A stretch of DNA of 29,567 bases from Minisyncoccota bacterium (GTDB lineage Bacteria; Patescibacteriota; Minisyncoccia; UBA6257; HR35): positions 1-29,567 of the forward strand of contig JAPYXA010000001.1 in the NCBI GenBank assembly GCA_028276075.1, in the 5' to 3' direction. The stretch's first letter is position 1; every line of letters begins with the position of its first letter. Below, piece after piece: positions 5,711 to 18,420 of the stretch. A program made the position numbers and the translations under genes. The notes beneath the pieces were generated by a model. That model had not been told where the DNA came from and made no database searches. It worked only from the letters and a program-made list of their open reading frames with translations.

Positions 5711-5859
5711 CTTAAAATTATATTACATTTAAGTTAGTGCTTCAATTAATTTCTCTTTTAAACTTTTTAGATAAGATTTTACTAACTGTCACCACCTCTT
5801 AATCTAGGTCAAATACAGAATAACCTCCACCACTAAAACTACAGGGTTTATCATTTAAA

Positions 5860-6002
5860 ATAAGAGACAAGACTATAACTTTTGAATATAGTCCTTGGTT
5901 TAAAATTTTAAAGAAACACTCCACACTGCTTACTTTGTTTGTACCATTGAAAGCATTATAAAACAAGCTTTTTAAGAAGTGAAATTAAAAATTAGGAATA
6001 CT
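5860..6002 (+). repeat. Junction J1: degenerate copy with a 91-bp internal deletion removing the core
   Basis: Matches J3 on the left (TTTGAATATAGTCCTTGG...AAGAAACACTC) and right (ACTGCTTACTTT...ATTAGGAATACT). The segment equivalent to 17539-17629 is missing, joined at a CTC microhomology. TGG is replaced by TAA in the frame. Confidence 0.85.
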
Positions 6003-6037
6003 TGTGATGTTTTAAACAAAGTATAACACTTTATTTT

Positions 6038-6265
6038 TTAATTTCTCAGTAATTTTAAAAATTCTTCTACTGATAAGCCTACTTGTTTAATAATGGCTTT
6101 TAGTGTGCCTTTCTTTAAATCTTTAGTATGATAAGGAATTGTAATACCGATGCTACCCTTAACATAAATTCTATGACTTCCTTTTTGTCTCACAAAAACA
6201 AAACCTAATTTTTCTAAAACTTTAATCACTTCCTTAGACTTTAAGGATGGCAGTTTCGGAGACAT
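6038..6265 (-). CDS. hicA: HicA-family mRNA interferase toxin
   Basis: LEKLGFVFVRQKGSHRIY motif; 'TIPYHTKDLKKGTLKAIIKQ'. Confidence 0.93.
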   Translation of the reverse strand: MSPKLPSLKSKEVIKVLEKLGFVFVRQKGSHRIYVKGSIGITIPYHTKDLKKGTLKAIIKQVGLSVEEFLKLLRN

Positions 6266-6514
6266 TTAAATTCTTACTTTAACAGGAGCGAGGATTATTT
6301 CCTCATCGTCTTTGATTTTCTCTTTATCTTTTTTCATAACTTCAAAATATAGAACTATAGCTTCTTTAATATTCTTTAAAGCTTCATCAAAAGTATCTCC
6401 TTCAGAAATACAACCAGGCAAAGAAGGCACAGTTACTGTATAGCCACCATCCTCATTTTTCTCAAAAACAGCTGTAAATTGATAGATTTTTTTCTTTAAA
6501 GATCTTTTAGCCAT
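6266..6514 (-). CDS. hicB: HicB-family antitoxin (short form, no evident DNA-binding domain)
   Basis: EDGGYTVTVPSLPGCISEGDTFDEALKNIKEAI; abuts the hicA start. Confidence 0.93.
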   Translation of the reverse strand: MAKRSLKKKIYQFTAVFEKNEDGGYTVTVPSLPGCISEGDTFDEALKNIKEAIVLYFEVMKKDKEKIKDDEEIILAPVKVRI

Positions 6515-6549
6515 TAGTAAAATTTGTTTGATTTGACCTCTTTTAAGAA

Positions 6550-6558
6550 ATTATAACA
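6550..6558 (-). promoter_or_regulatory. Extended -10 promoter (TGTTATAAT) for hicBA
   Basis: Perfect TGnTATAAT on the minus strand, 35 nt upstream of the hicB ATG. Confidence 0.6.
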
Positions 6559-6574
6559 TAACCAAAAATAAACT

Positions 6575-6688
6575 GCTAATTTTGAGAAAATTCATTCTGA
6601 AATGCTCCGCACTGCTTACTTTATTCGAACCATTGAAAACATTATAAAACAAACTCCTTGGGAAGTAAAATTGAAAATTAGAAATACT
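6575..6688 (+). repeat. Junction J2 (attP-like): 32-bp core 6578-6609 plus 79-bp right arm
   Basis: AATTTTGAGAAAATTCATTCTGAAATGCTCCG is identical to 17600-17631 and 18322-18353. Arm 6610-6688 differs from 17632-17710 at 8 of 79 positions. Confidence 0.95.
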
Positions 6689-6741
6689 TGGGAGGTTTTG
6701 AGTGTTATATAATTAAAAAAAACAACTATTTTACAACTATT

Positions 6742-6893
6742 ATGCCTAATCCAAATATAAAACCAAGGTGGAAGAAAGGAGAATCAGGAAACCTGCTAGA
6801 AGACCGAAAGAATCAAGGAATTATAAGACTTTATTCCGTGAAGCATATGTGGCTATTGCAAGGGATTTAAGATTAGGAAAAGACCCAGATGTT
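6742..6893 (+). pseudogene. Frameshifted, truncated DUF5681-like (GxSGNPxGRP) phage-type gene relic
   Basis: Restoring one C at AAC CTG gives MPNPNIKPRWKKGESGNPARRPKESRNYKTLFREAYVAIARDLRLGKDPDVL, cut off at the stop of the 1155-aa gene. Confidence 0.7.
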
Positions 6894-9800
6894 TTATTCT
6901 CTAATAATATCTTCTAATTTCCAAAATAATCTGCCACCTTTTTCTAAAAGTTCGTTAATAAGAGAAATTACTCCGTCTTTTATTTTTTGATTTTTATTTT
7001 TATAAAGAATATTAAATGCTTCATACCATTCTTGATCTATATGAATTAACATTCTGTTTTCGCGTTTATTCTCTAAAATACTATTTAAAAATAAACTTAA
7101 AATTTCTAATGTTTTTTCAGGAGATTCTTTGGCTAATCTAACAATATTTTTCATTAATGCATAATCCCAATCTAAAACGCCTTCTGTTTTTTCTAAAGTT
7201 CTTTTAACCAAATCAGCTAATTCTTCACCTTTGAAAATTCCTTTATCTAAATCAATCCAAAATCCGAATGCTTCAAATGGTTTTTTGTCTTTTGTATATT
7301 TCTCAAGCATCCAATTCCAAAAATCCTTAATTCTTTTCTTAATATTTAAACCATCTTTTTCTATTTTCTCAATAAGATTATCTTCTCTTGTTATAATATA
7401 ACGTCCGATAAAATCTACAAAATGAAAATGTTCTTTTGAGCTTCCTTCTTCCCAGAATTTTTTAAATAATTTATTTTCAAAATCAAATTCTTTAAAATGT
7501 ACAAAAGCAAGCGCTAAATGAGCAGCAATTCCTTCGTCTAAATCTCTAAAATTTTCTTGATTATAATCTTCTTCTTTTAATATAATTCCGTATTCATATA
7601 ATTCCTGAATTTTTAGATCAAAAAATAGTTCTTTGTATAAATTTTGAGACAAATATCCTTGCCAACTTGCGGTATAAAGCCGATTATTTTCTTTTGGAAA
7701 TATTTTAGAAAATAAACTTCTTACCCATTCTTTATCTCTAAAATAAAATGATGGCAAATAATAACCAAACATAAACATTAAAGCCCGAGTATTTTCTTTC
7801 TCTAAAACTTCTTTAAATATTCCTTTTACATCCTCTTTTAGCTTCTCACCATCCTGATAAATAAACAAAACAAAATCTTCAAAAGCTCTACCTCTAACTG
7901 AATTAATTGCTATTGTAAAAGGATCAGAAATCTTTTTTTCTTTCCCTCTTTCAACTGTCATTTTTGCTGTTTTAATATCTTCATCTTCTGGAATTGGATC
8001 CGGATAATTCAATAAGTATTTAATTATTTTCAACAACTCTCCTCTGTATTTGCTAAAATCAATTACAACTATACCATCTTCGCTTTTTAATAATTCTCTA
8101 ATAACATCAGTCATTGCAAAATGAACCGAATTCCAATTAGCTAACAATGTATAACCAAACTTCTGCTCTTGAGGTTCGTTATAGAAACGCTTTTTCTCTC
8201 CTGATTCTTTAATTTTTAATAAAAGGTCAATTAAATTTTTCCCATCAATATCTTTTGCTTTCGCTCTATTATTTTTTATTGCTTCTTGAACACCAGCCAG
8301 AAAAGAATAAGTATAATGAGGATGCAATTTTTCTCTATTAAAAAACTCAGTTGAATATTCTAAATATTTTTCTAATCTTTCTGGGACATTTCTTTTAATA
8401 TGGTCACCGATACCACCAGCATTTATTAAGTCAAAAATATCATATTTATCCTTGTATGTTTGGTAAAGATTTTCAGGAGTCCATTCAGCAGTCAATTTTT
8501 CTAAAATTTCTTTAATTTCCATTTTTGAAAATTCCTCATAAGATATTGGCGATCCACTTCTAACAGTACCGAATTTTACTTCTACTTCCGGCTTTATCTC
8601 AATATCTGGATTTAATTCAAATCCATTGTCTTTTGATTTTAATTTCTCTTTTTCTGTAAGATGATTAAAAATCAACGAAAGTATTTTTGAACCATCTTTT
8701 ATAATCCATTCTTTATCTGGATTTTTCTCTTTTTGTCCTACAAAAAATTCTATAACTTGCTTTACATAATCTCTTTTGTCTTTTTCTTCTAAAACTCCAA
8801 AACAATTCTGAAGTAATTTTTCATATTCAACTGTCAAAATATCATAATACCTATCGCCAACATTAAAAATTCTAAATAACGTTTTTTTAATTTCGTCTTT
8901 GAAGATTGAGCAATCTAATTGTAAAATGGCTAACCTCAATTTCCATGCTGAATATGTATCCGGTAATATTTCCACATTTTCAAAATCTAAAATGTCTTTA
9001 AAAATTTTTCTTAAATCTTCTTTATTATCTTTATATTTTTCTTTAATTAATCTTCTTGAAATTTCTAAAATAGCAGCAATAAGTTCTTTGATATTATCTT
9101 TGCCCCATAAATCTTTATCTTCTCCAACTTTTAAATCAGAAAAATCTTCATAGAAATAAAGATTATCTTTTAACTTAAATATACTTTCTTCACTTTTTTC
9201 AGATGCATTATTTATAACCTCTTTTAAAATTTTTATTGATAAATCTAGAACTTTTTCCAAATATTCATCATCAATATTAACCAAATACCAAAAAACTCTT
9301 GTATAAGATAAATTTTCAAAATAAAATGGACTTTCTGGAAATCTGTTTTGACTTTTTATTTCTTCCCTGCTTTTAACAGATAATATCGCTTCAACAAGAA
9401 TTAATAAATTATCAAAATTTTTTGCCTCAAATAGTTTTTTAAGTATTTCCTCGTATTCAAAACCCCATTGATTAAAAACACCCATTAAAGGAATCCAGTT
9501 TTCATCTTTTATTTTCTGAACAATTCTAACTAATTGTTTAACTGGTAATTTACTACAAATATAAACAAATCTATCTATTACTTCTGGATTAAATGTTTCT
9601 TTTGAAATCGAAACCTGAAGTATAATATCTACAACTTTTTCCGGTACTTTTTCAGCTACTTTTACTAAATAATTTAATTCTGGAGTTTTATAACTATAAC
9701 GAGTTGGATCTTCTGCTTTTTGCTTAATTGCATCTAAAAATCCATTTCCCCAAAGCCAATCAATCCATCGTTCGTCTGCTTTATAAAAGAAATAATAATG

Positions 9801-10361
9801 GGCATCACTATTTATATTGATCAGAGCTTCAATTTCATTTTTCAGTTGTTCCTGTTGAAATTCTATCGGCTCTTTCTCTAAAATTTCATCAATAAATTTA
9901 TGTATATCTGTTTGATATGCTAATGCTTTCTTTATAACCTTTATGAATTCTTGGCGTAAATTTTCAAAATCTTCTATGAGTCTATGATGAGCAACATCTT
10001 GTAATTTATTATAAAGTTTTCCTATTTCTTCATCTTTTATTAGTTTTGACCCCACAGAACCAAATTTTTCAAAAGCTTTTTTCTTTTTATCTTTAACTTG
10101 CTTGATTTGCGGACTAAAAAATGGATAAAGAATTTCTCTTAAGGAATGAGTTGCTTGAGATAACCAATCAGGATTAGATCTATTTTCCTCTCTAGCAGCA
10201 AAAATCGAGCCTTTATAGAATTCAGATGGTTTTTTATTCAAATTATAATATTCATAAAATTTATCCAATTTCCGACACAAATATTCTTCCTCCGGAGATA
10301 AAATAACGGGCGGTAGACGTGTAATTCCATAAAACTCTGGTAAATTTTTATCCTGTTCCAT
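6894..10361 (-). CDS. Large hypothetical protein (possible HEPN-like N-terminal domain + long alpha-helical region); putative defence effector
   Basis: 1155-aa ORF overlapping the MTase stop by 14 nt. N-terminal NPDWLSQATHSLREIL and KLQDVAHH. No Walker motif seen. Confidence 0.8.
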   Translation of the reverse strand: MEQDKNLPEFYGITRLPPVILSPEEEYLCRKLDKFYEYYNLNKKPSEFYKGSIFAAREENRSNPDWLSQATHSLREILYPFFSPQIKQVKDKKKKAFEKFGSVGSKLIKDEEIGKLYNKLQDVAHHRLIEDFENLRQEFIKVIKKALAYQTDIHKFIDEILEKEPIEFQQEQLKNEIEALININSDAHYYFFYKADERWIDWLWGNGFLDAIKQKAEDPTRYSYKTPELNYLVKVAEKVPEKVVDIILQVSISKETFNPEVIDRFVYICSKLPVKQLVRIVQKIKDENWIPLMGVFNQWGFEYEEILKKLFEAKNFDNLLILVEAILSVKSREEIKSQNRFPESPFYFENLSYTRVFWYLVNIDDEYLEKVLDLSIKILKEVINNASEKSEESIFKLKDNLYFYEDFSDLKVGEDKDLWGKDNIKELIAAILEISRRLIKEKYKDNKEDLRKIFKDILDFENVEILPDTYSAWKLRLAILQLDCSIFKDEIKKTLFRIFNVGDRYYDILTVEYEKLLQNCFGVLEEKDKRDYVKQVIEFFVGQKEKNPDKEWIIKDGSKILSLIFNHLTEKEKLKSKDNGFELNPDIEIKPEVEVKFGTVRSGSPISYEEFSKMEIKEILEKLTAEWTPENLYQTYKDKYDIFDLINAGGIGDHIKRNVPERLEKYLEYSTEFFNREKLHPHYTYSFLAGVQEAIKNNRAKAKDIDGKNLIDLLLKIKESGEKKRFYNEPQEQKFGYTLLANWNSVHFAMTDVIRELLKSEDGIVVIDFSKYRGELLKIIKYLLNYPDPIPEDEDIKTAKMTVERGKEKKISDPFTIAINSVRGRAFEDFVLFIYQDGEKLKEDVKGIFKEVLEKENTRALMFMFGYYLPSFYFRDKEWVRSLFSKIFPKENNRLYTASWQGYLSQNLYKELFFDLKIQELYEYGIILKEEDYNQENFRDLDEGIAAHLALAFVHFKEFDFENKLFKKFWEEGSSKEHFHFVDFIGRYIITREDNLIEKIEKDGLNIKKRIKDFWNWMLEKYTKDKKPFEAFGFWIDLDKGIFKGEELADLVKRTLEKTEGVLDWDYALMKNIVRLAKESPEKTLEILSLFLNSILENKRENRMLIHIDQEWYEAFNILYKNKNQKIKDGVISLINELLEKGGRLFWKLEDIIRE

Positions 10362-13300
10362 AATTCTCTATAATTTTAATCTCGTCTTCGGTTAAGTTAT
10401 AAAGTTTATAAACTAATTGGTCTATTTGTTTTTCGTATTCGGTTGTGTCGGCTTTTGAGTTTTGATTTTTAAGAGATAGAATTTTATCAACTAATGATTC
10501 TATTTGTTTTGTCAGTTGTCTATTATTTTCAGAAATGTAAGGAATTGGGAGTTTTTCTAAAAATTCTTTTTTATATCTATAACCCTCGTCTCCTAAACCG
10601 CCACCTGCGTAGAATTTTCTAAAAAAATATGTAACCGGTTTTGAGTTTAATAATCCGCAGATGTATTTAATATTTTCTCCTGTCATTAAAAATGCAGTTG
10701 CTTCAATATAAAATTTATTTTCATCAAAATAAAACTGTGGTTCTTGCACTATTTCTGAATATACTATCTTCTCCTTCTCAAACTCCGGATAATAAGCACA
10801 ATGGCGTAATTCCCACCAGTAATCACCTTGATCATCTCTTTTTTTAGCTTCTTTCTCAAATTTTTTTAAATATTTCATTAAAGATGGAAAGGTTTTTTCA
10901 ATAAATATTTCTGGTTTTTCTTCTCCTCTATTTTCATCTGTCCAACCAGCTGGAATGACTATAACCCACAAACCTGCCCACTCATAATAATATCTTTTAA
11001 TATCTCTCCCTCTTAAAATTGGATTGATGATTGCTTCGGTTCTTTTTCGTTCTTCTTCGTCTTTACAATTGGCTAAAATTTGGTTTCTTTTTTCTGTGGT
11101 TATGATAAAAGCTTCATTTAAACCGGTTTTGATACCGTAGTAAATTTTTACATCCCAATCTTTTAAAGGCTTGCCAATTTTTTCAATTTTTTCTTTTAAT
11201 TTTCTTTCTGCTTCGGTGCCAATAAACCAAGCTTCTGATGTAAGATTAGAAAGCAAAATGCTTTTTTCTTTAAATACTTCATCAATATTGTTTTTATCTT
11301 GTTTTTCAAGCTTTAAAGCTTTTAATTTATTTTGATTTTGCGATTTTTGAATTATTAAAATACAAGTATCCACTGTCGCGCTTTCAAAAACTCCAGGACC
11401 CAAATCAATAAGCTTAATTGGATTATATTTAATAAAAAATTCTCTTAATTTTTTACCATAGCCAGCCCTCATCCATTTATTAGAAGAAATATAAGTTAAA
11501 ATTCCATTTAATTTTAAAAGTTGTATCCCCTTTTCATAAAAAAGACAATAAATATCTCCAGTTCTATCAAATGTTTCATATCCTTCTTCTTTGTATAAAT
11601 CAGCATATTTTTTCTCTTTATCAAAAGCTTTTTGAAGTTGAATATAAGGTGGGTTAGCAATCACAATATCAAAACCATCACTTAATCCAAACATCCATTC
11701 TGGCTCAAACCAAGGATTAGAATAATTTGGATCAAAAGGTTTAAAAGCAAGAATTTTTTGAGCTGTTTGTTTTAAAGCATCTCCAGAAATAACTTTTTTA
11801 ATTTCTTCTATTTTCTTATTAACTTCTTTTAATTCTTTTAATTTACTCTGAATTTTTCCTTGCTTTAAATCAATACTTAGTCGCATAGTTTTGCCGAATA
11901 ATCTTTTTTGCTCAATAACCTGAAATTGCTCTGGCTCTAATTTAATTTTTTCAATCTCTTCTTGAATTTTTTTTGCTTGCGAAATCAATTGTCCTAATTC
12001 TCTTTTTTTCTCTATTTTAATAGTAGATTTCAAGCTTTCAGATAATTTCTTTTCTAATTTTTCTATATTTTCTCTTATCTTTTTCTTATCTCCTCTTAAT
12101 TTTGCCCTAAAATAACGATGATATTGTTCTTTAATATCATTAAAAAGTTTTTGGATTTTTTCATCTTTAAATAATGTAAGTTGGATATCTTTTTTAATAC
12201 CTAAACCAATTAGAGAATTAGCAGTGATAAATTTCAAATCAAGATTTGGCAAAGGAATAATTCCAAAATTTTCTTTATTTTTATCAACTTTTTGATCAAT
12301 GATTAAAGAAATAAAAAATCTTAATTTGCTTAATTGTGTAGCAATTTGCTGAATATCAACTCCGAAAATACAATTTTCTATTAAATAAAGTTTTCTGGCA
12401 TAATCAGGGTAAAAAAGATTTTCATTAAATGTTTCTTCTAATTCTTTAAAATGTTCTTCTATTTCTTTTTCATCTTTTTCTGATAATTTTTTAAGTTCTT
12501 CTTTTAATTTTCTTATTTGAATTTTTTTCCAATATTCATTTTTGGGGTCTATTTTCCCTAAAACATAAACCAACTTATTTAAAATACCCATTGGAAAAGC
12601 ACCAGAGCCACAAGCAGGATCGATTATTTTAATTTCGCTTATTATTTCTACGATTTTTTCTTTTTGTTTTTCTTCAGGTTCAATTTCTTCATCTGAATAA
12701 GATAAAAGTAAATCAAGGGTTTCTTCTGGTATTTCGGGAAGCTTAGTTTTAAAATATTCAAGAAGGCTTTGATGAACCATATATTCAACAATTTCTCTTG
12801 GAGTATAATAACTACCTGTTGCTTTTCTTGCTGTGGTTGCGGTTTCCGGATTATAGACTGCCAAAAGATTTTCAAAAATTTTTCCTAAAAGTTCTGGGTC
12901 CAAAGCAACTTCTTGGTCAATTGGAGTTGCTTCATCTATCGTAAAATTATAGCTTTTTAATATATTAATAAGTCCTCTTGCTTTTTGATTTGATTTAATT
13001 TGGTATTTGCTTAAATCAGTTTTAATTTCTTCGCTAAAGAATAAATAATCAGGAATTTTTGCTTGTCTCTTTTCTTCTCGTGAAAAACCATCAACATAAA
13101 TTACTTTTCCGTTTTCATCTTCTTTGTCTAAACAATCAAAAAGACCACCATTGATAAAAGGAATCTCAGAGAATATTTCTTGTACTTCTTCAGGAGAAAT
13201 TAAAAATTTGTCTTCGTATCTATATAATTGTTTAATCCCATAAGTATTCCTATTTTCCGGAAACCCCTTGTTAAAAGCCCAACCTCTATCTTTAATTGGT

Positions 13301-14073
13301 TGATTTAATGTAGCAAAGAATAAATTTTGCAAAATTGCGTTGTAATAATTACAAGAATCTTGGGAAACATTAAAATCTTTAATTACTCCTTTAATTTCTT
13401 TTTGGTTAAAAATTTGATCTGGAATTAATCCTTTTTGCTTAATAAACCAAATAAAAATTAATCTACTTAATAATCTTATAAGATGTAGAGGCTTGGTTTC
13501 TTTTTTATTATCTGGAAAATGTATTTTATCTAAAGCGGTAAAGAACCATGTTTGGATTTCTTTATAAAATTCTTTTGTAATTGGCTCAACAGAAAATGCT
13601 TCTTTTATTTTTTCTAAAGATGAAAAATCTCCATCTCCTACCTGACGTAAGAATGTATTATTTGTCTGATCTTTAGACACAAAATAGGTGAATCTCTTGA
13701 AATGACTAAACTTTCTTTTAGTACCAAAGTATTCTGTATAAATTAAAGAAAATCTGAATTTATTATCATTGTCATAAAAAATAAATATTCCAGCATCTGC
13801 ATTTTCATTTTTTAAAATTTTTTTCCCAATTTCGTATTGTTTTTTCTTGCCGGATCTTTCAGTTAATTCTTTTAAAACTTTAAATGTACAAAAAATAATG
13901 TTATTATCTTGAAATTGAATTTCTCCGATCTTTTTTGATAAACTAAAATCTTCATTTTCAATTCCTAAATTAATTTCTAAAGGTCTAAAATTATGATTTT
14001 TAATTCGAAAAAAATTAATAAATTTTTCTGGAGAAAAATCTTCAATTATTTGTCTTAAAATTTCTCTGCTCAT
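10348..14073 (-). CDS. Eco57I/TaqI-like N6-adenine DNA methyltransferase with C-terminal target-recognition domain
   Basis: FINGGLF, PELLGKIFENLL, GSYYTPREIV, motif I DPACGSGAF, motif IV IANPPY, TaqI_C-like C-terminus. Confidence 0.93.
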   Translation of the reverse strand: MSREILRQIIEDFSPEKFINFFRIKNHNFRPLEINLGIENEDFSLSKKIGEIQFQDNNIIFCTFKVLKELTERSGKKKQYEIGKKILKNENADAGIFIFYDNDNKFRFSLIYTEYFGTKRKFSHFKRFTYFVSKDQTNNTFLRQVGDGDFSSLEKIKEAFSVEPITKEFYKEIQTWFFTALDKIHFPDNKKETKPLHLIRLLSRLIFIWFIKQKGLIPDQIFNQKEIKGVIKDFNVSQDSCNYYNAILQNLFFATLNQPIKDRGWAFNKGFPENRNTYGIKQLYRYEDKFLISPEEVQEIFSEIPFINGGLFDCLDKEDENGKVIYVDGFSREEKRQAKIPDYLFFSEEIKTDLSKYQIKSNQKARGLINILKSYNFTIDEATPIDQEVALDPELLGKIFENLLAVYNPETATTARKATGSYYTPREIVEYMVHQSLLEYFKTKLPEIPEETLDLLLSYSDEEIEPEEKQKEKIVEIISEIKIIDPACGSGAFPMGILNKLVYVLGKIDPKNEYWKKIQIRKLKEELKKLSEKDEKEIEEHFKELEETFNENLFYPDYARKLYLIENCIFGVDIQQIATQLSKLRFFISLIIDQKVDKNKENFGIIPLPNLDLKFITANSLIGLGIKKDIQLTLFKDEKIQKLFNDIKEQYHRYFRAKLRGDKKKIRENIEKLEKKLSESLKSTIKIEKKRELGQLISQAKKIQEEIEKIKLEPEQFQVIEQKRLFGKTMRLSIDLKQGKIQSKLKELKEVNKKIEEIKKVISGDALKQTAQKILAFKPFDPNYSNPWFEPEWMFGLSDGFDIVIANPPYIQLQKAFDKEKKYADLYKEEGYETFDRTGDIYCLFYEKGIQLLKLNGILTYISSNKWMRAGYGKKLREFFIKYNPIKLIDLGPGVFESATVDTCILIIQKSQNQNKLKALKLEKQDKNNIDEVFKEKSILLSNLTSEAWFIGTEAERKLKEKIEKIGKPLKDWDVKIYYGIKTGLNEAFIITTEKRNQILANCKDEEERKRTEAIINPILRGRDIKRYYYEWAGLWVIVIPAGWTDENRGEEKPEIFIEKTFPSLMKYLKKFEKEAKKRDDQGDYWWELRHCAYYPEFEKEKIVYSEIVQEPQFYFDENKFYIEATAFLMTGENIKYICGLLNSKPVTYFFRKFYAGGGLGDEGYRYKKEFLEKLPIPYISENNRQLTKQIESLVDKILSLKNQNSKADTTEYEKQIDQLVYKLYNLTEDEIKIIENYGTG

Positions 14074-17000
14074 AAATTCCTATTTTCTATCGCAATAATA
14101 ATTTCTTTACTAATTTCTTTTAATTTTTCTTTTTCTTTTAATAAGTAATTTTCTCCCCCTAACTCATCTTTTAATTTTTCTAATTCTTTTATTGTATTTT
14201 CCATTTCATCGTCCGAAGCTTTTAATTTTATAATTCTGCGCAAAGTATAATCAGATAGAGTACCATAATCTGTAATATCTTCTCGCAAAGTGCGTAAGAA
14301 TTCTTTTAGTGGAGATAATTTTTCATTGTTTAAGTTAAGTAAAGTTTTAATATTGTTTAATGCTTTTTGCTCTAAACTTGCTTCAGGAATAGGCAACCTT
14401 TCTTCTCTTAATTCTTTAACAATTTCGTATTTTTCCCAAAAATTGTCACTTAAATCTATCAATTTTTCATTTTTGGGGCAACGAATTCTATCTATTATTT
14501 CTTCAAGTATAACTGGCTGTGGTTTATTTTGGTCGTTGTAATCAATTTTTTGGATATACAGTCTTCTTTTTTTAATAAACACAAGAAGTTCATCTTTATC
14601 GGATTTTTTTGCAACTTTTACTCTTGGTGGACAATTTTTTATATTCTCAACAATTTCGGGGTATTCTTTTTTAATTCTTTCAAATTCATTCAAAATTGTA
14701 GTATAAAAACTCTCACTTTCTATTTTATCTGGGTTTTGTTGTATTCTTTGATACAGTTCGGAAGGAATTGGTTCTTCATCAATATCAAATATTTTAGCAT
14801 CTTCTCCAAGCACATTATGAATTAAAAACATTTTTTGCGCCGCTATTTCTCTTGATTTTACAAGTTCGGATCCTTTTTCAGTTGGAAAAAAGTTTGCTAT
14901 ATAAACTTTATCAAAAACTTTTTTACCAATCCTATTGATTCTACCCACTCTTTGAATAACTCTTACCGGATTCCAAGGTATATCATAATTTATTACAAGA
15001 CCAGCTCGATTTAAATTAAATCCTTCAGAGATTCTATCAGTAGATAAAATAATATCGTATTTGTTTTCTTTCTTTTCTTCTGGATAAGAAGCGTCAAAAT
15101 TTTTATTTATTTCTTCTATTTTAGTTTTTGTTAGATCACCAGCAATAACTAAAACACTATCATTAAAGTATTTTTGTAATGGGTTTTTAAGATATTTAAC
15201 TGTATCAAGATATTCTGAAAATATAACAATTTTTCTGCGAGGATCTATTTTCCTCCATTCTCCTAATTTGTTTATTAAACACTCCAATTTAGGATCGTTA
15301 TTTACTAGTCCTAAAGCATCTAACCTTTTTAAAATTTCTTCAAATAAATTAAGATCAGATTTTATATCCTCAAGAAAAAGATCTTTTTCTTTCAGTTTTT
15401 CTATTTCGTATATATCCGAGTTCTTTGGATAAATTCCTTCGTTCAATTTTTGAGCGTATTCTTTAAGTTTTTCTTCTATTTGTTCAGGTTCTAATTCACA
15501 AATTTTTTCCAGGAAGTCTCTGTCTAAAATAAATTTATTGGTTTTATTTATAAATTGGAGGCAATGATCTGTTATGTTTCGGAAGTTTTCTATACTTTGC
15601 TTAAATGCTCCAAAAGAACTTTCAAATCTTTTAACAAGCAATCTTCTCATAAAGTCATACAAATTAAATTGTTGTTGAAATCTTCTATTATCTTCTTCTG
15701 ATAAATCAATTTCTGTATCTTCATATTTAACTCCTGCTTTATATTCAAAAGGCCTGTAAATTGCACCTTTAAATTTTCCGCCCTCTTCTGGATAATTAAA
15801 ATAACTTATTACTTCGTCATAAAATTTAGACTGCTCTTTGGATAATTCAAAAAACCATTCCTGAGGATCTGCAACTTCAGTTAAATTTTTAACCTCATCT
15901 TTATAAAATGGATTCTTTTGTAAATCAAGTCTATTTCTTCTAATTGTTACAGGTTCAATAACGTCTCTTATTTGTTTTGATAAATATTTTGCTCTTTGAG
16001 TAACTTTTCTTAGATCTATTTCGTCCTCTCCGAATAAAGATTTGTAATATGCTTTTGCCTTTGAAGATTTGTTTTCATCGCCTAAGTTGTGATATTTTTT
16101 AATATAACCAAGTTTATCAAAGGTAGTTTTAAATATCCTAAACTTATCTAATAAATTATTTTCTAATGTAATTGTCGATTTTTTAGGAGATATAAATAGT
16201 TTTAATAATGACAAAATATCACCGGGGCGATTATTAAATGGAGTTGCAGTAAGCAAAATTACTATTTTATCACGACAAATATTTTTTAATTGTTCGTATG
16301 ATTTGGTATCTTCATTTCTAAATCTATGCGCTTCATCAACTATTATTACTTCAATATCTCTTAATCCTTTTAAAGATTTTATAAAATCTTTATTGCCTAA
16401 TTTTCCTATTGATTCTGCTCGCCAATCGTATAATCCAAAAGCTTCAAGATACCATCTCCACCCTGATTTTTCCTTTTTTTCGTCTCCTATAAGGCCTGGT
16501 GGACACAAAACAATGCCTCTTTTTCTTAATTGCCTAGCTACTAAACAGGAAATTATTGTTTTACCTAAACCAACAACATCAGCTATTATAACTCCATTAT
16601 TGTTTTCTATTATACTAAGCGCTTGTTTAACAGCATGTATTTGATAAAGATAAGGAGCAAAGCCATTTTTTTCCATAACTGATTTAATGCTTTCGTCACC
16701 AACATCTTTAAGAGAGAAAGTGTCAAGATAATTTTTTAAAACAAGAGAATATGCTTCAAATGGAGTAATTTTCTTTATTAAAGTTTTATTTTCAATAGTA
16801 CTTATTAGTCGCTCTTTTATTATATTATTTTCTGTTATCTGGATTGCCTCTTCCCAAAGATTATCAAAATATTCTTCCGCCTCTTTTGATCCATAATCAC
16901 TTATTTCTACATTAAATTCTTGTTGTTGTTCTAAACCAGCCGATGTTAAATTACTACTGCCTGTTATAAAAATAGTATTTTTTACTTCTCCGGGTTTTAA

Positions 17001-17417
17001 TTTAAAAATATACAATTTAGCATGATTTGGTTTATAAGTTTTTCGAATTATTAATCTATTTTCTTTTATTAAATCTATGAAAAATTTAACTTGTTCGTAA
17101 AATTCTCTTGTATCAAAATCGTCTGAATTGATAGAAATTGCTAAAGATTTGAAAAAAAGATCTAATTTTTCTTGACCTGATATACTTGAATCTCTCTCAG
17201 TAATTTCTATAAGTCCATAAGTTATCTTATCAACATTTAAACCAACTAAGATTTTTAATTTAGCAGAAGGATTGTTTTTTAACCCTTCGTACAATTCTTT
17301 TATTCCGGAAAAATAAAAGAAACCCACTAAAAATTTTAATTCATTGCTTTTGGATATTAACTCACTTATCCTATCTTTCAAATTCCCAACTCCGCTATTG
17401 GTTATAAAATTAGCCAT
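14070..17417 (-). CDS. PLD-nuclease + SNF2/SF2 helicase fusion
   Basis: PLD-like NHAKLY...GSSNLT; helicase motifs IADVVGLGKT, DEAHRFRN, LTATP, SEGFNL, NYDIPWNPVRVIQRVGRINR. 4-nt overlap with the MTase start. Confidence 0.93.
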   Translation of the reverse strand: MANFITNSGVGNLKDRISELISKSNELKFLVGFFYFSGIKELYEGLKNNPSAKLKILVGLNVDKITYGLIEITERDSSISGQEKLDLFFKSLAISINSDDFDTREFYEQVKFFIDLIKENRLIIRKTYKPNHAKLYIFKLKPGEVKNTIFITGSSNLTSAGLEQQQEFNVEISDYGSKEAEEYFDNLWEEAIQITENNIIKERLISTIENKTLIKKITPFEAYSLVLKNYLDTFSLKDVGDESIKSVMEKNGFAPYLYQIHAVKQALSIIENNNGVIIADVVGLGKTIISCLVARQLRKRGIVLCPPGLIGDEKKEKSGWRWYLEAFGLYDWRAESIGKLGNKDFIKSLKGLRDIEVIIVDEAHRFRNEDTKSYEQLKNICRDKIVILLTATPFNNRPGDILSLLKLFISPKKSTITLENNLLDKFRIFKTTFDKLGYIKKYHNLGDENKSSKAKAYYKSLFGEDEIDLRKVTQRAKYLSKQIRDVIEPVTIRRNRLDLQKNPFYKDEVKNLTEVADPQEWFFELSKEQSKFYDEVISYFNYPEEGGKFKGAIYRPFEYKAGVKYEDTEIDLSEEDNRRFQQQFNLYDFMRRLLVKRFESSFGAFKQSIENFRNITDHCLQFINKTNKFILDRDFLEKICELEPEQIEEKLKEYAQKLNEGIYPKNSDIYEIEKLKEKDLFLEDIKSDLNLFEEILKRLDALGLVNNDPKLECLINKLGEWRKIDPRRKIVIFSEYLDTVKYLKNPLQKYFNDSVLVIAGDLTKTKIEEINKNFDASYPEEKKENKYDIILSTDRISEGFNLNRAGLVINYDIPWNPVRVIQRVGRINRIGKKVFDKVYIANFFPTEKGSELVKSREIAAQKMFLIHNVLGEDAKIFDIDEEPIPSELYQRIQQNPDKIESESFYTTILNEFERIKKEYPEIVENIKNCPPRVKVAKKSDKDELLVFIKKRRLYIQKIDYNDQNKPQPVILEEIIDRIRCPKNEKLIDLSDNFWEKYEIVKELREERLPIPEASLEQKALNNIKTLLNLNNEKLSPLKEFLRTLREDITDYGTLSDYTLRRIIKLKASDDEMENTIKELEKLKDELGGENYLLKEKEKLKEISKEIIIAIENRNL

Positions 17418-17476
17418 AATTATATTTTAATTTTACCATTCTATATTTAGAGTTCAAATTTTAAAGAAAGATTTTA

Positions 17477-17743
17477 ATAAGGAATATGGTCATAAGTTTT
17501 GAATATAGTCCTTGGTTCGCAATTTTAAAGAAACACTCTAGACTTATTAAAGAAATTTGCGAACTCGAAAAAGATAAGATTTTACAAGGAGAAAAAGCTA
17601 ATTTTGAGAAAATTCATTCTGAAATGCTCCGCACTGCTTACTTTATTCAAACCATCGAAAATATCATCAAACAAACTCCTTGGGAAGTAAAATTAAAGAT
17701 TAGGAATACTTTTCAAATAATTAATGAAGTCTTTGGGCATTAA
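17477..17743 (+). pseudogene. Junction J3: most complete copy; 85-aa ORF reading through the core (probable C-terminal remnant of an element gene, possibly a recombinase)
   Basis: Core 17600-17631 lies within ...KANFEKIHSEMLRTAYFIQT.... Homology to J1 extends upstream of the ATG (IRNMVISFEY vs IRDKTITFEY), so the ATG is probably not an original start. Confidence 0.6.
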
Positions 17744-18142
17744 AATTTTTAATTTATGTTTAGAAGCAAAGTTTATCACTTTTTGATTTAGAAACCCTTT
17801 ATCTAAAGTTAAAAGAAAATTAACTTTTTCCTTTATTGCTGAAGCTAAAATAGGAGCATCTTTTTCTTCCACTAAATTTTTTAATTGTTTTAAATCTTTT
17901 TTATTCGGGTTATTCACAATAGAGATTTCTCCTAATGTTAAAATTTCAAAAAATCTCATTAAAAGATTAGGAAATTTTCTTTCAACAACATCTAAAAGCT
18001 CTTTTAAAATAAATTCTGAAATAAACAATTTATAACCTTTGTTTTTAGCTGAAACTAAACAATAATATGAAGCTCCTTTATTAGAAATCAAAGAAGAAAT
18101 GATAACACTTGAATCAACAAAAACTTTTTTATTGTTTTCCAT
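17693..18142 (-). CDS. PIN-domain (VapC-like) toxin
   Basis: VFVDSSVIIS, SEFILKEL, KDAPIL and LLTLDK supply the PIN acidic residues. Start MENNKK at 18142 preferred, since the longer track start lies inside the antitoxin ORF. Confidence 0.9.
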   Translation of the reverse strand: MENNKKVFVDSSVIISSLISNKGASYYCLVSAKNKGYKLFISEFILKELLDVVERKFPNLLMRFFEILTLGEISIVNNPNKKDLKQLKNLVEEKDAPILASAIKEKVNFLLTLDKGFLNQKVINFASKHKLKILMPKDFINYLKSIPNL

Positions 18143-18302
18143 AATATTTCTTATAAATTTTTGCTCTAGATTTTTTAAGATCTTTTCTAACTTTCTCCCA
18201 TATTTTTTTGTCAACACTAAAATCAATTTTTGGGCTAATAATTGTCTTCAAAACCTTCAATTCTTTTTCTAATTTATTTATTCTTTCTAAAACTTTTACC
18301 AT
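18129..18302 (-). CDS. Putative antitoxin (57 aa) for the PIN toxin
   Basis: Not in the track. MVKVLERINKLEKELKVLKTIISPKIDFSVDKKIWEKVRKDLKKSRAKIYKKYYGKQ*; overlaps the PIN start by 14 nt. Confidence 0.7.
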   Translation of the reverse strand: MVKVLERINKLEKELKVLKTIISPKIDFSVDKKIWEKVRKDLKKSRAKIYKKYYGKQ

Positions 18303-18311
18303 CTTATTTAA

Positions 18312-18320
18312 ATTATAACA
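18312..18320 (-). promoter_or_regulatory. Extended -10 promoter (TGTTATAAT) for the PIN TA pair, near-leaderless
   Basis: Perfect TGnTATAAT with 9 nt between it and the ATG at 18302; immediately adjacent to the junction core. Confidence 0.65.
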
Positions 18321-18321
18321 A

Positions 18322-18353
18322 AATTTTGAGAAAATTCATTCTGAAATGCTCCG
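18322..18353 (+). repeat. Junction J4: 32-bp core overlapping the tRNA-Asn 3' end
   Basis: Identical to the J2 and J3 cores; its last 5 nt (18349-18353) are the tRNA 3' terminus. Confidence 0.95.
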
Positions 18354-18420
18354 GGGGCAGGATTCGAACCTGCGACATCGCGGTTAACAGCCGCGCGTTC
18401 TACCGCTGAACTACCCCGGA
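18349..18420 (-). tRNA. tRNA-Asn (GTT), CCA not encoded
   Basis: TCCGGGG/CCCCGGA acceptor stem, GTTC/GAAC D-stem, CGCGG-CT-GTT-AA-CCGCG anticodon arm, GCAGG-TTCGAAT-CCTGC T-arm, G discriminator. Confidence 0.98.

Follow-up and report, generated by a model that had tools for sequence, protein, structure and literature searches.

We analysed positions 5860-18420 of a 29,567-nt window (the whole stretch of DNA under study) from a Minisyncoccota bacterium, whose genome assembly amounts to 564 kb and is 66% complete. Toxin-antitoxin (TA) genes and a restriction-modification (RM)-like operon lie there in three units at the 3' end of a tRNA-Asn gene, and the units are separated by short repeats that turn out to be the tails of large serine recombinase (LSR) genes. 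Candidate-phyla-radiation (CPR) bacteria have tiny genomes, and to our knowledge few mobile elements have been described in them. Below, compared genomes carry G-codes (G000 being the host genome) and compared sequence stretches or contigs carry L-codes. The tRNA-Asn flank was examined in 19 other genomes of the same family with a tRNA-Asn hit; the family includes Candidatus Parcubacteria bacterium KatS3mg094 (G007). Evidence from sequencing runs is that of Logan contigs, and the runs with window sequence are hot-spring metagenomes.

The integration target, tRNA-Asn(GTT), occupies 18348-18420 on the minus strand and was the single tRNA found by ARAGORN; its last 5-6 nt fall within the core shared by the junctions. 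A 32-bp sequence (the 32-mer) is present in three exact copies, at 6578-6609, 17600-17631 and 18322-18353 (junctions O1, O2 and O3), the third of which covers the last 6 nt of the tRNA-Asn 3' end, as the initial annotation had reported. No fourth copy was found at up to 3 mismatches, none of 100 dinucleotide shuffles gave a match and none is expected by chance. Start-to-start distances between the core copies are 686, 11,022 and 722 bp, which bears out the spacing given earlier and delimits units E3, E2 and E1, respectively. The sequences on either side are repeated as well: the N-arm (~125 bp left of the 32-mer) at 17476-17599 and 5859-5932, and the C-arm (~80 bp right of it) at 6610-6689, 17632-17711 and, in a more diverged form, 5925-6003. 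The deleted copy that had been noticed near 5922 is also real, as 5853-6010 aligns pairwise with 17470-17720 apart from one 91-nt gap (equivalent to ~17536-17626), which takes the whole 32-mer save its last 4-5 nt and has short CTC microhomology at its edges. No inverted repeat of 18 nt or more was detected at any junction.

Every ORF (open reading frame) of the region that is supported by a protein family lies on the minus strand, as does the tRNA, and the earlier description of the intact cargo as co-oriented and of TA or RM/defence type was upheld. E1 (17632-18321; 722 bp core to core) consists of a C-arm (17632-17711), a PIN toxin gene (within 17693-18226; Pfam PIN_3/PIN, TIGR00305), an unannotated 57-aa ORF upstream of it (18129-18302), which from reading of the sequence is its presumed partner, and a TGTTATAAT -10 element (18312-18320) that touches O3. 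E3 (5925-6577; 686 bp) likewise holds a C-arm (5925-6003), followed by hicA (6038-6265; Pfam HicA_toxin), hicB (6266-6514; Pfam HicB_lk_antitox) and a TGTTATAAT element (6550-6558). In both small units this element, a predicted promoter, is located directly upstream of the operon. Exact sequence look-ups gave no record for HicB or for the 57-aa partner.

E2 carries three large genes, also on the minus strand. The first (14070-17417) encodes an 1115-aa protein with a PLD nuclease and an SNF2 helicase part (Pfam PLDc_2, SNF2-rel_dom, Helicase_C; PADLOC DrmD / HKD+Snf2), the second (10348-14073) a 1241-aa type IIG-like N6-adenine methyltransferase (Pfam Eco57I, TaqI_C, N6_Mtase; PADLOC REase_MTase_IIG, 9e-157; under the BREX PglX cut-offs) and the third (6894-10361) an 1155-aa protein assigned to no family of Pfam or NCBIfam, for which PADLOC gives just a weak Dsr1-like match without the SIR2 part. 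The proteins of this operon match PADLOC defence models, yet remain far under the curated NCBIfam cut-offs for BREX and DISARM, and no curated defence system was matched; we therefore name it RM-like and leave it unclassified. Its genes (6894-17417) overlap by 4 and 14 nt, an arrangement that suggests translational coupling. Within the SNF2 gene, a 40-nt stretch (16305-16345) reaches a contig depth of ~1760x in run X1 and ~165x in run X4, probably owing to unrelated abundant organisms with a common helicase motif.

No ORF of 5860-18420 contains a recombinase domain, in agreement with the initial annotation, which saw no integrase in cis, and the only traces of LSR genes are 3' remnants. N-arm, 32-mer and C-arm together form a single 85-aa ORF (17486-17743, plus strand), residues 2-49 of which match the C-terminus of a 522-aa LSR of G014 (Resolvase and Recombinase domains). 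The gene of that LSR overlaps tRNA-Asn convergently with its 3' end. The junctions are in-frame coding sequence of such a recombinase tail, and the 32-mer corresponds to the last 11 codons of the LSR gene of one of two families found at this locus, which we call type A and type B. The longer type-A 3' remnant (17420-17631, plus strand) spans ~71 codons with one stop, and tblastn aligns it with aa 439-512 of the LSR homologue P0007 at 73% identity, and with aa 456-512 at 88%. A second type-A remnant of ~25-30 codons (5848-5937, plus strand; tblastn, pairwise alignment) has been joined to the C-arm of E3 by the 91-nt deletion. Weak DEDDh_C and PDC-M38B matches had raised the possibility that the 85-aa ORF is an independent gene, which was rejected for a recombinase-tail junction. 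When this ORF was compared with 1.84 billion representatives, only short junction ORFs were returned and no full-length LSR with N-arm, core and C-arm in one frame; a type-A LSR owning the C-arm was therefore not found in that collection.

Intact LSRs are found in the relatives. Type-A genes are intact in G014, L077 and L078, which supplies the recombinase that had been predicted to match the junction with its 3' end, and the relatives' intact LSRs, 511-546 aa long, read into the antisense strand of tRNA-Asn at the same point. In three of the 19 family genomes (G007, G009 and G014) tRNA-Asn is entered by an LSR ORF that is intact or long, and in G015, G016, G020, G021 and G022 by a truncated LSR stub, while G001 has a long ORF that runs into a tRNA hit of 77% identity; the remaining genomes of the set have neither an LSR ORF nor a stub at this flank. 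The LSR/tRNA break in these genomes always falls after ..TG and before CTCCG. Since unoccupied sites and the 32-mer have only TGCTCCG in common, the 32-mer is composed of a ~25-bp P half-site (recombinase codons) and a 7-bp core. Its interpretation as a copy of the tRNA end was ruled out, as it overlaps the tRNA by 6 nt only and the empty sites lack the other 25 nt. The empty attB of G010 (C32) and the attL of L077 have an identical left flank and thus provide an unambiguous set of attB, attL and attR, which places the crossover inside TGCTC(C)G. This heptamer alone is common to the G010 empty site, the attL of L077, G014 and L030, and all attR, the arms being otherwise unlike.

The two LSR families share 27% identity. 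Type A, with the tail ..NFEKIHSEMLR, is present in G014, L077, L078 and P0007 and is the source of the stubs in the window. Its intact elements measure 4.6-8 kb and encode the LSR along with GP3_package, DUF5659 and a protein of 410 aa; the X-arm, as we call their far end, was seen in G014 and L077. Type B, with the tail ..ENQSGLLR, uses tRNA-Asn in L063, G007 and G009 but tRNA-His in G010. The intact type-B elements, those of L063 and G010 (tRNA-His), terminate at their far end in the C-arm of the window, at 86-92% identity; the C-arm is the counterpart of the X-arm. In G010 the far end extends the LSR frame into a conserved tail, ..FIRTIENIIKQTPWEVKLKIRNT, of which the X-arm encodes a diverged version. 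Neither a type-B stub nor an X-arm is present in the window.

The left end of E2 (6610-6899, plus strand) preserves more of such an element. It comprises the C-arm at 6610-6689 (P' half-site and LSR tail codons) and a frameshifted, truncated DUF5681 relic at 6742-6899, and matches the left end of the G010 element (L062) at 84% identity along 290 nt. The relic, which tblastn finds in two frames, spans the first 53 codons of the G010 gene, in which Pfam recognizes DUF5681, and is then cut off. The G010 element itself (L062, G010:C38, 387-15311) is a complete 14.9-kb element at tRNA-His with genes for DUF5681, a DnaJ-domain protein, zinc-ribbon proteins, a primase-helicase fusion and the type-B LSR. 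It shows the form that the window units had before their decay, as well as the switching of tRNA targets by its family.

An attachment site inside the recombinase gene is not peculiar to this locus. Of the 120 best homologues of the G014 LSR, at least 51 end in antisense-tRNA 'DSN' tails and another group in extended ..FRT.. tails, which makes the in-gene site a trait of the family in Patescibacteria. The P half-sites of type A and type B (18322-18347 versus the reverse complement of L063 6322-6347) are identical at 18 of 26 positions, set against proteins of 27% identity, a likeness that hints at a shared mode of DNA reading or at constraint by the common target. A viral collection yielded no relative of the LSR and no match to the C-arm. 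Nothing on this LSR family in Patescibacteria was found in the literature, which is weak evidence of absence.

With these reference sites the junctions of the window can be read. O3 (18322-18353, plus strand) is of the attR type, with the 25-bp P half-site formed by type-A LSR 3' codons and the core TGCTCCG followed by the tRNA, which acts as B' half-site; besides the exact 32-mer, it is identified by tblastn matches to the LSR C-terminus and the antisense-tRNA tail, and by CGAAC at +14 after TGCTC. O2 (17600-17631, plus strand) is attP-like, of the P-core-P' form, as it ends the type-A LSR 3' remnant and has the C-arm to its right. O1 (6578-6609, plus strand; exact 32-mer, 35 bp when 6575-6577 are counted) is also attP-like, its P half-site and core being followed by the C-arm, with no LSR remnant on the left. 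The fourth copy, at 5859-6003, in which the N-arm is fused to the C-arm, is a dead junction because the 91-nt deletion removed its P half-site. The inventory accordingly amounts to two sites that are attP-like, a single one of attR type and a dead one, and the earlier proposal of tandem att-type junctions built of a left and a right arm holds: the arms are repeated, and the attL and attR of relatives break at the same point. The hybrid form of O2, a type-A N-arm and core stub to the left of a type-B C-arm, recurs in L063 and G007. In G007 this junction is ~12.3 kb from an intact, tRNA-proximal type-B LSR, which is consistent with the layout of L063 and G010. Comparison of the O1 and O2 C-arms reveals 8 differences in ~80 sites, of which 7 leave the amino acids of the recombinase frame unchanged. 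This means that each arm evolved as coding sequence in an element of its own, and that neither was copied from the other in situ.

The spacing within the half-sites agrees with what is known of serine integrases. One LSR subunit contacts 25 bp of an attP half-site, and the motif read by the zinc-ribbon domain is located 5 bp nearer the centre in attB than in attP (Rutherford et al., PMC3783163). The T-arm box CGAAC is found at +14 after TGCTC in the tRNA-Asn and tRNA-His half-sites and at +19 in the C-arms and X-arms, in 12 of 12 right half-sites, and the tRNA-His site pair of G010 obeys the same rule. This 5-bp shift away from the core in the P' arms reproduces the attP versus attB geometry. 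The P' arms may thus mimic the T-arm box of the tRNA at attP spacing, which would explain how one LSR family can dock at many tRNAs. The left half-sites, examined for the same +5 rule, gave no clear symmetry pattern.

Cargo at tRNA-Asn had been recommended for comparison across relatives. It differs among populations, with breakpoints at the repeats, in L079, L030, G013, G015, G007 and L063. L079 carries HicAB (88% identical), a different 2.1-kb unit with two unknown proteins, and PIN (93.6%), while L030 has an attB-like left flank, HicAB (87%), an MjaV-type RM unit with an X-arm, and the tRNA. The 11-kb operon was absent from this site in all relatives examined; a homologue of its methyltransferase (77% identical) lies in L033 beside another N-arm and core stub. 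As the breakpoints of relatives fall at the junctions, accretion or replacement by units is real, and we have high confidence in unit-wise turnover over evolutionary time. The 87-88% identity of the HicAB unit to its copies in L030 and L079 is similar to that of the flanking housekeeping genes (72-88%) and fits vertical descent rather than recent transfer. Its half-site shares a 28-nt identical run with the L030 copy, which by our estimate is not significant at 87% identity.

Based on these observations, we suggest, with a probability of about 0.8, that the region is a decayed tandem stack of LSR-placed integrative elements at the 3' end of tRNA-Asn. The LSR gene found at one end of the relatives' elements, which combines Resolvase, Recombinase and zinc-ribbon domains, is missing from the window apart from its 3' stubs, so the units are derivatives and not autonomous members of these families. 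Elements of type A and type B would have inserted successively at tRNA-Asn and thereby created the P-core-P' hybrid junctions, the P(A)-core-P'(B) form arising as a type-B element entered beside a resident type-A end, an arrangement still intact in L063 and G007. Later deletions would then have removed both recombinase genes and most of the element genes, leaving behind the two self-promoted TA pairs, the RM-like operon, the half-sites, LSR stubs of 71 and ~28 codons and the DUF5681 stub. The alternation of families may mean that the attR of one can still serve as a target for the other. In its present role the array would be a defence/addiction island, and movement of its units would need an LSR in trans together with relaxed site-pair rules.

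Several points weigh against this reconstruction. The units of the window all combine a left end in the style of type B with a right end in the style of type A, which needs either a collapsed pair of B and A elements for every unit or an unsampled type-A LSR element that carries the C-arm. There is no intact element in the window, and the order of events is reconstructed, not observed. Tandem integration into attR or attL is non-canonical for serine integrases (PMC3783163). In the two small units the retained sequence is almost exactly the half-site (32 and 35 bp), an outcome not expected of random deletion. Finally, the G+C profile is flat across the region and shows no shift, and hence G+C cannot mark an island here.

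The retention of half-sites is also one of the arguments for the most serious alternative, namely that the 0.7-kb TA units and the 11-kb unit are active non-autonomous cassettes, whose attP (32-mer plus C-arm) is used by an LSR encoded elsewhere and which are reshuffled in the manner of an integron. Both small units are built on one chassis, i.e. C-arm, TA pair, TGTTATAAT and a bare 32-35-bp half-site, and two deletions in a 1.6-kb gene are unlikely to have ended by chance no more than 3 nt apart. All three cores have the same sequence, against arms that differ at about a quarter of their synonymous sites, and the inner stretch AAATTCATTCTG with the core has been retained at five recombinase-less junctions from three samples. 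It also fits this explanation that the middle unit varies among populations and HicAB and PIN are kept.

The site pairs available in the window, however, are attP-like with attP-like and attP-like with attR, which serine integrases normally do not synapse: synapsis is restricted to attP with attB, and attL and attR are auto-inhibited (PMC3783163). Searches with the PF00239 profile and with whole proteins found no LSR gene in the 564-kb, 66%-complete genome. Logan contigs of four runs break at the 32-mer, and those listed include no circle, empty site or core-to-core joint, which such contigs cannot show. The divergence of the HicAB unit, being near that of the housekeeping genes, speaks for vertical inheritance, and attI, Pc and a resident integrase are all missing. 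We consider active cassettes unlikely on balance, and the same holds, with similar odds, for present-day mobilization of the units in trans; the initial annotation's idea that the units can be excised or shuffled by a recombinase encoded elsewhere was accordingly not supported. A narrower version of this idea is tentative at best: the 0.7-kb TA units, with their P' arm, swappable TA pair, own promoter and 25-bp P half-site, may represent genuine cassettes, non-autonomous and mobilized in trans by two LSR families that use each other's attR. If so, tRNA-Asn in these Parcubacteria would be the serine-recombinase counterpart of an integron platform, with the T-arm box read as the zinc-ribbon motif.

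Repetition of the junctions through local duplication or homologous recombination of one att region would account for the identical cores, and direct repeats of 112-127 bp could indeed support RecA-type exchange. The arms, on the other hand, have diverged mainly at synonymous sites, as separate coding copies do, and every junction breaks at the same nucleotide as the attL and attR of relatives. Moreover, each unit has unrelated cargo, the units occur separately in other samples, and E2 matches the end of one element family on its left and of another on its right, which renders duplication very improbable. An artefact of assembly, in which contigs of a metagenome-assembled genome were misjoined at the repeat, could be suspected from the Logan contigs of what is probably the source run: all of the repeats coincide with contig breaks, and one 752-bp contig runs exactly from core to core. 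This explanation is scarcely credible, however. Reads are longer than the 32-bp exact repeat and can tell the arms apart by their 8 differences, so that read-level assembly can resolve the array. The independent contig L079, moreover, has the same order of HicAB ... PIN, the N-arm+core+C-arm junction recurs in L063 and G007, and in run X1 every unit is matched by contigs that show no difference from it.

The locus, taken as a decayed stack of LSR-placed elements, can be compared with several known systems. Integrons rely on the tyrosine recombinase IntI, an attI site, the Pc promoter, folded single-stranded attC sites and mostly promoterless cassettes. The window array is similar to chromosomal integrons with TA cassettes in being a one-way series of small units, TA pairs among them, split by recombination sites. 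None of the parts of an integron (IntI, attI, Pc, attC, promoterless cassettes) is present in it, and the small units are self-promoted, so that the proposed functional analogy with an integron fails.

A closer parallel is provided by the ssrA islands of Dehalococcoides, which are arranged in tandem downstream of ssrA, are flanked by direct repeats of its 3' end, and are placed by a ~540-aa CcrB-like serine recombinase, DsiB, with a second small recombinase (McMurdie et al. 2011, PMC3146451). Fifteen of these islands lack an integration module and were proposed to be cis-mobilizable elements (PMC3146451). Both systems thus contain recombinase-less units in tandem at one small-RNA gene and of serine recombinase origin. 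In Dehalococcoides, however, the target is a tmRNA gene, the 20-bp repeat copies the gene end and the islands are large and carry rdhA, with no att site reported inside a recombinase gene (PMC3146451). In the window, by contrast, a tRNA gene is targeted, most of the repeat codes for recombinase, LSRs of two families take turns and two of the units measure only 0.7 kb.

In the staphylococcal cassette chromosome (SCC), CcrAB serine recombinases stack elements in tandem at the 3' end of orfX (rlmH). Some units of SCC composites are devoid of ccr genes yet have kept their flanking repeats (PMC7029136). SCC and pseudo-SCC composites are therefore alike to the window array in their tandem serine-recombinase units at the 3' end of a gene, some of them recombinase-less with repeats retained, and differ in having a protein gene as target, two recombinases, resistance or virulence cargo and an attSCC that, as far as is known, lies outside the ccr coding sequence. 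The concept of site-specific accretion followed by deletion is also that of the cis-mobilizable elements (CIMEs) related to ICESt1/ICESt3, att-flanked elements without recombination or transfer genes, in tandem with related elements (Pavlovic et al. 2004, as cited in PMC3146451). CIMEs depend on a tyrosine integrase and a conjugative partner at the 3' end of fda, unlike the window array, which has no autonomous partner. An attachment site within the recombinase gene is known from myxophage Mx8, whose attP lies in the IntP/IntX integrase coding sequence, so that integration gives the gene a new 3' end (PMC6070905). Mx8 differs in its tyrosine integrase and in forming a single prophage, with no stack of recombinase-less units.

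As in such accretion arrays, att-derived repeats bound the units of the window at one site, and recombinase and transfer genes are absent. Tandem accretion with recombinase-less units has already been published for Dehalococcoides, staphylococci and streptococci. The present case stands out by its CPR host, by an att site located within the recombinase gene, by the alternation of two LSR families, by the putative T-arm mimicry at +5 and by TA-only units of 0.7 kb, which make it unusually compact. The locus shows a route by which CPR bacteria build and vary a defence island: LSRs that carry an att site in the final codons of their genes dock at the end of a tRNA, after which decay leaves only cargo and half-sites. 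It might also be of interest for studies of serine integrases, their use as genome-engineering tools included, with respect to the alternation of families at one site, the possible mimicry of the T-arm by P' and smallest units that are little more than a half-site. Each of these features supplies natural sets of attB, attL, attR and hybrid attP-like sites that are directly testable.

Further observations concern recombinases and the tRNA elsewhere. A 36-nt piece of a decayed type-A LSR 3' end (89% identical) is present in the host genome at G000:C13:6614-6649 (L006:1514-1549), with no core and no tRNA nearby. The sole tyrosine recombinase match of the genome (PF00589) is located on another contig (G000:C6:7343-7717) and is cut by the contig end. 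A group I intron interrupts the anticodon loop of tRNA-Asn in several relatives, e.g. in L030 (3269-3591; RF00028 with 55.9 bits, the gathering score being 50, and E 1.8e-13), and also in G020 (L017/L057), in the second copy of G009 (L054/L058), in G018 (L049) and at the end of L063. The tRNA-Asn of the window is intronless, and contigs of run X3 diverge from it at 18386 into intron sequence, which indicates that both tRNA-Asn alleles occur in related populations. Lastly, another organism, represented by three independent assemblies (L080-L082), has a C-arm and the last ~100 nt of the PIN gene joined, near ileS, to an Exo_endo_phos gene that is truncated; this remnant of the PIN unit lies away from any tRNA site.

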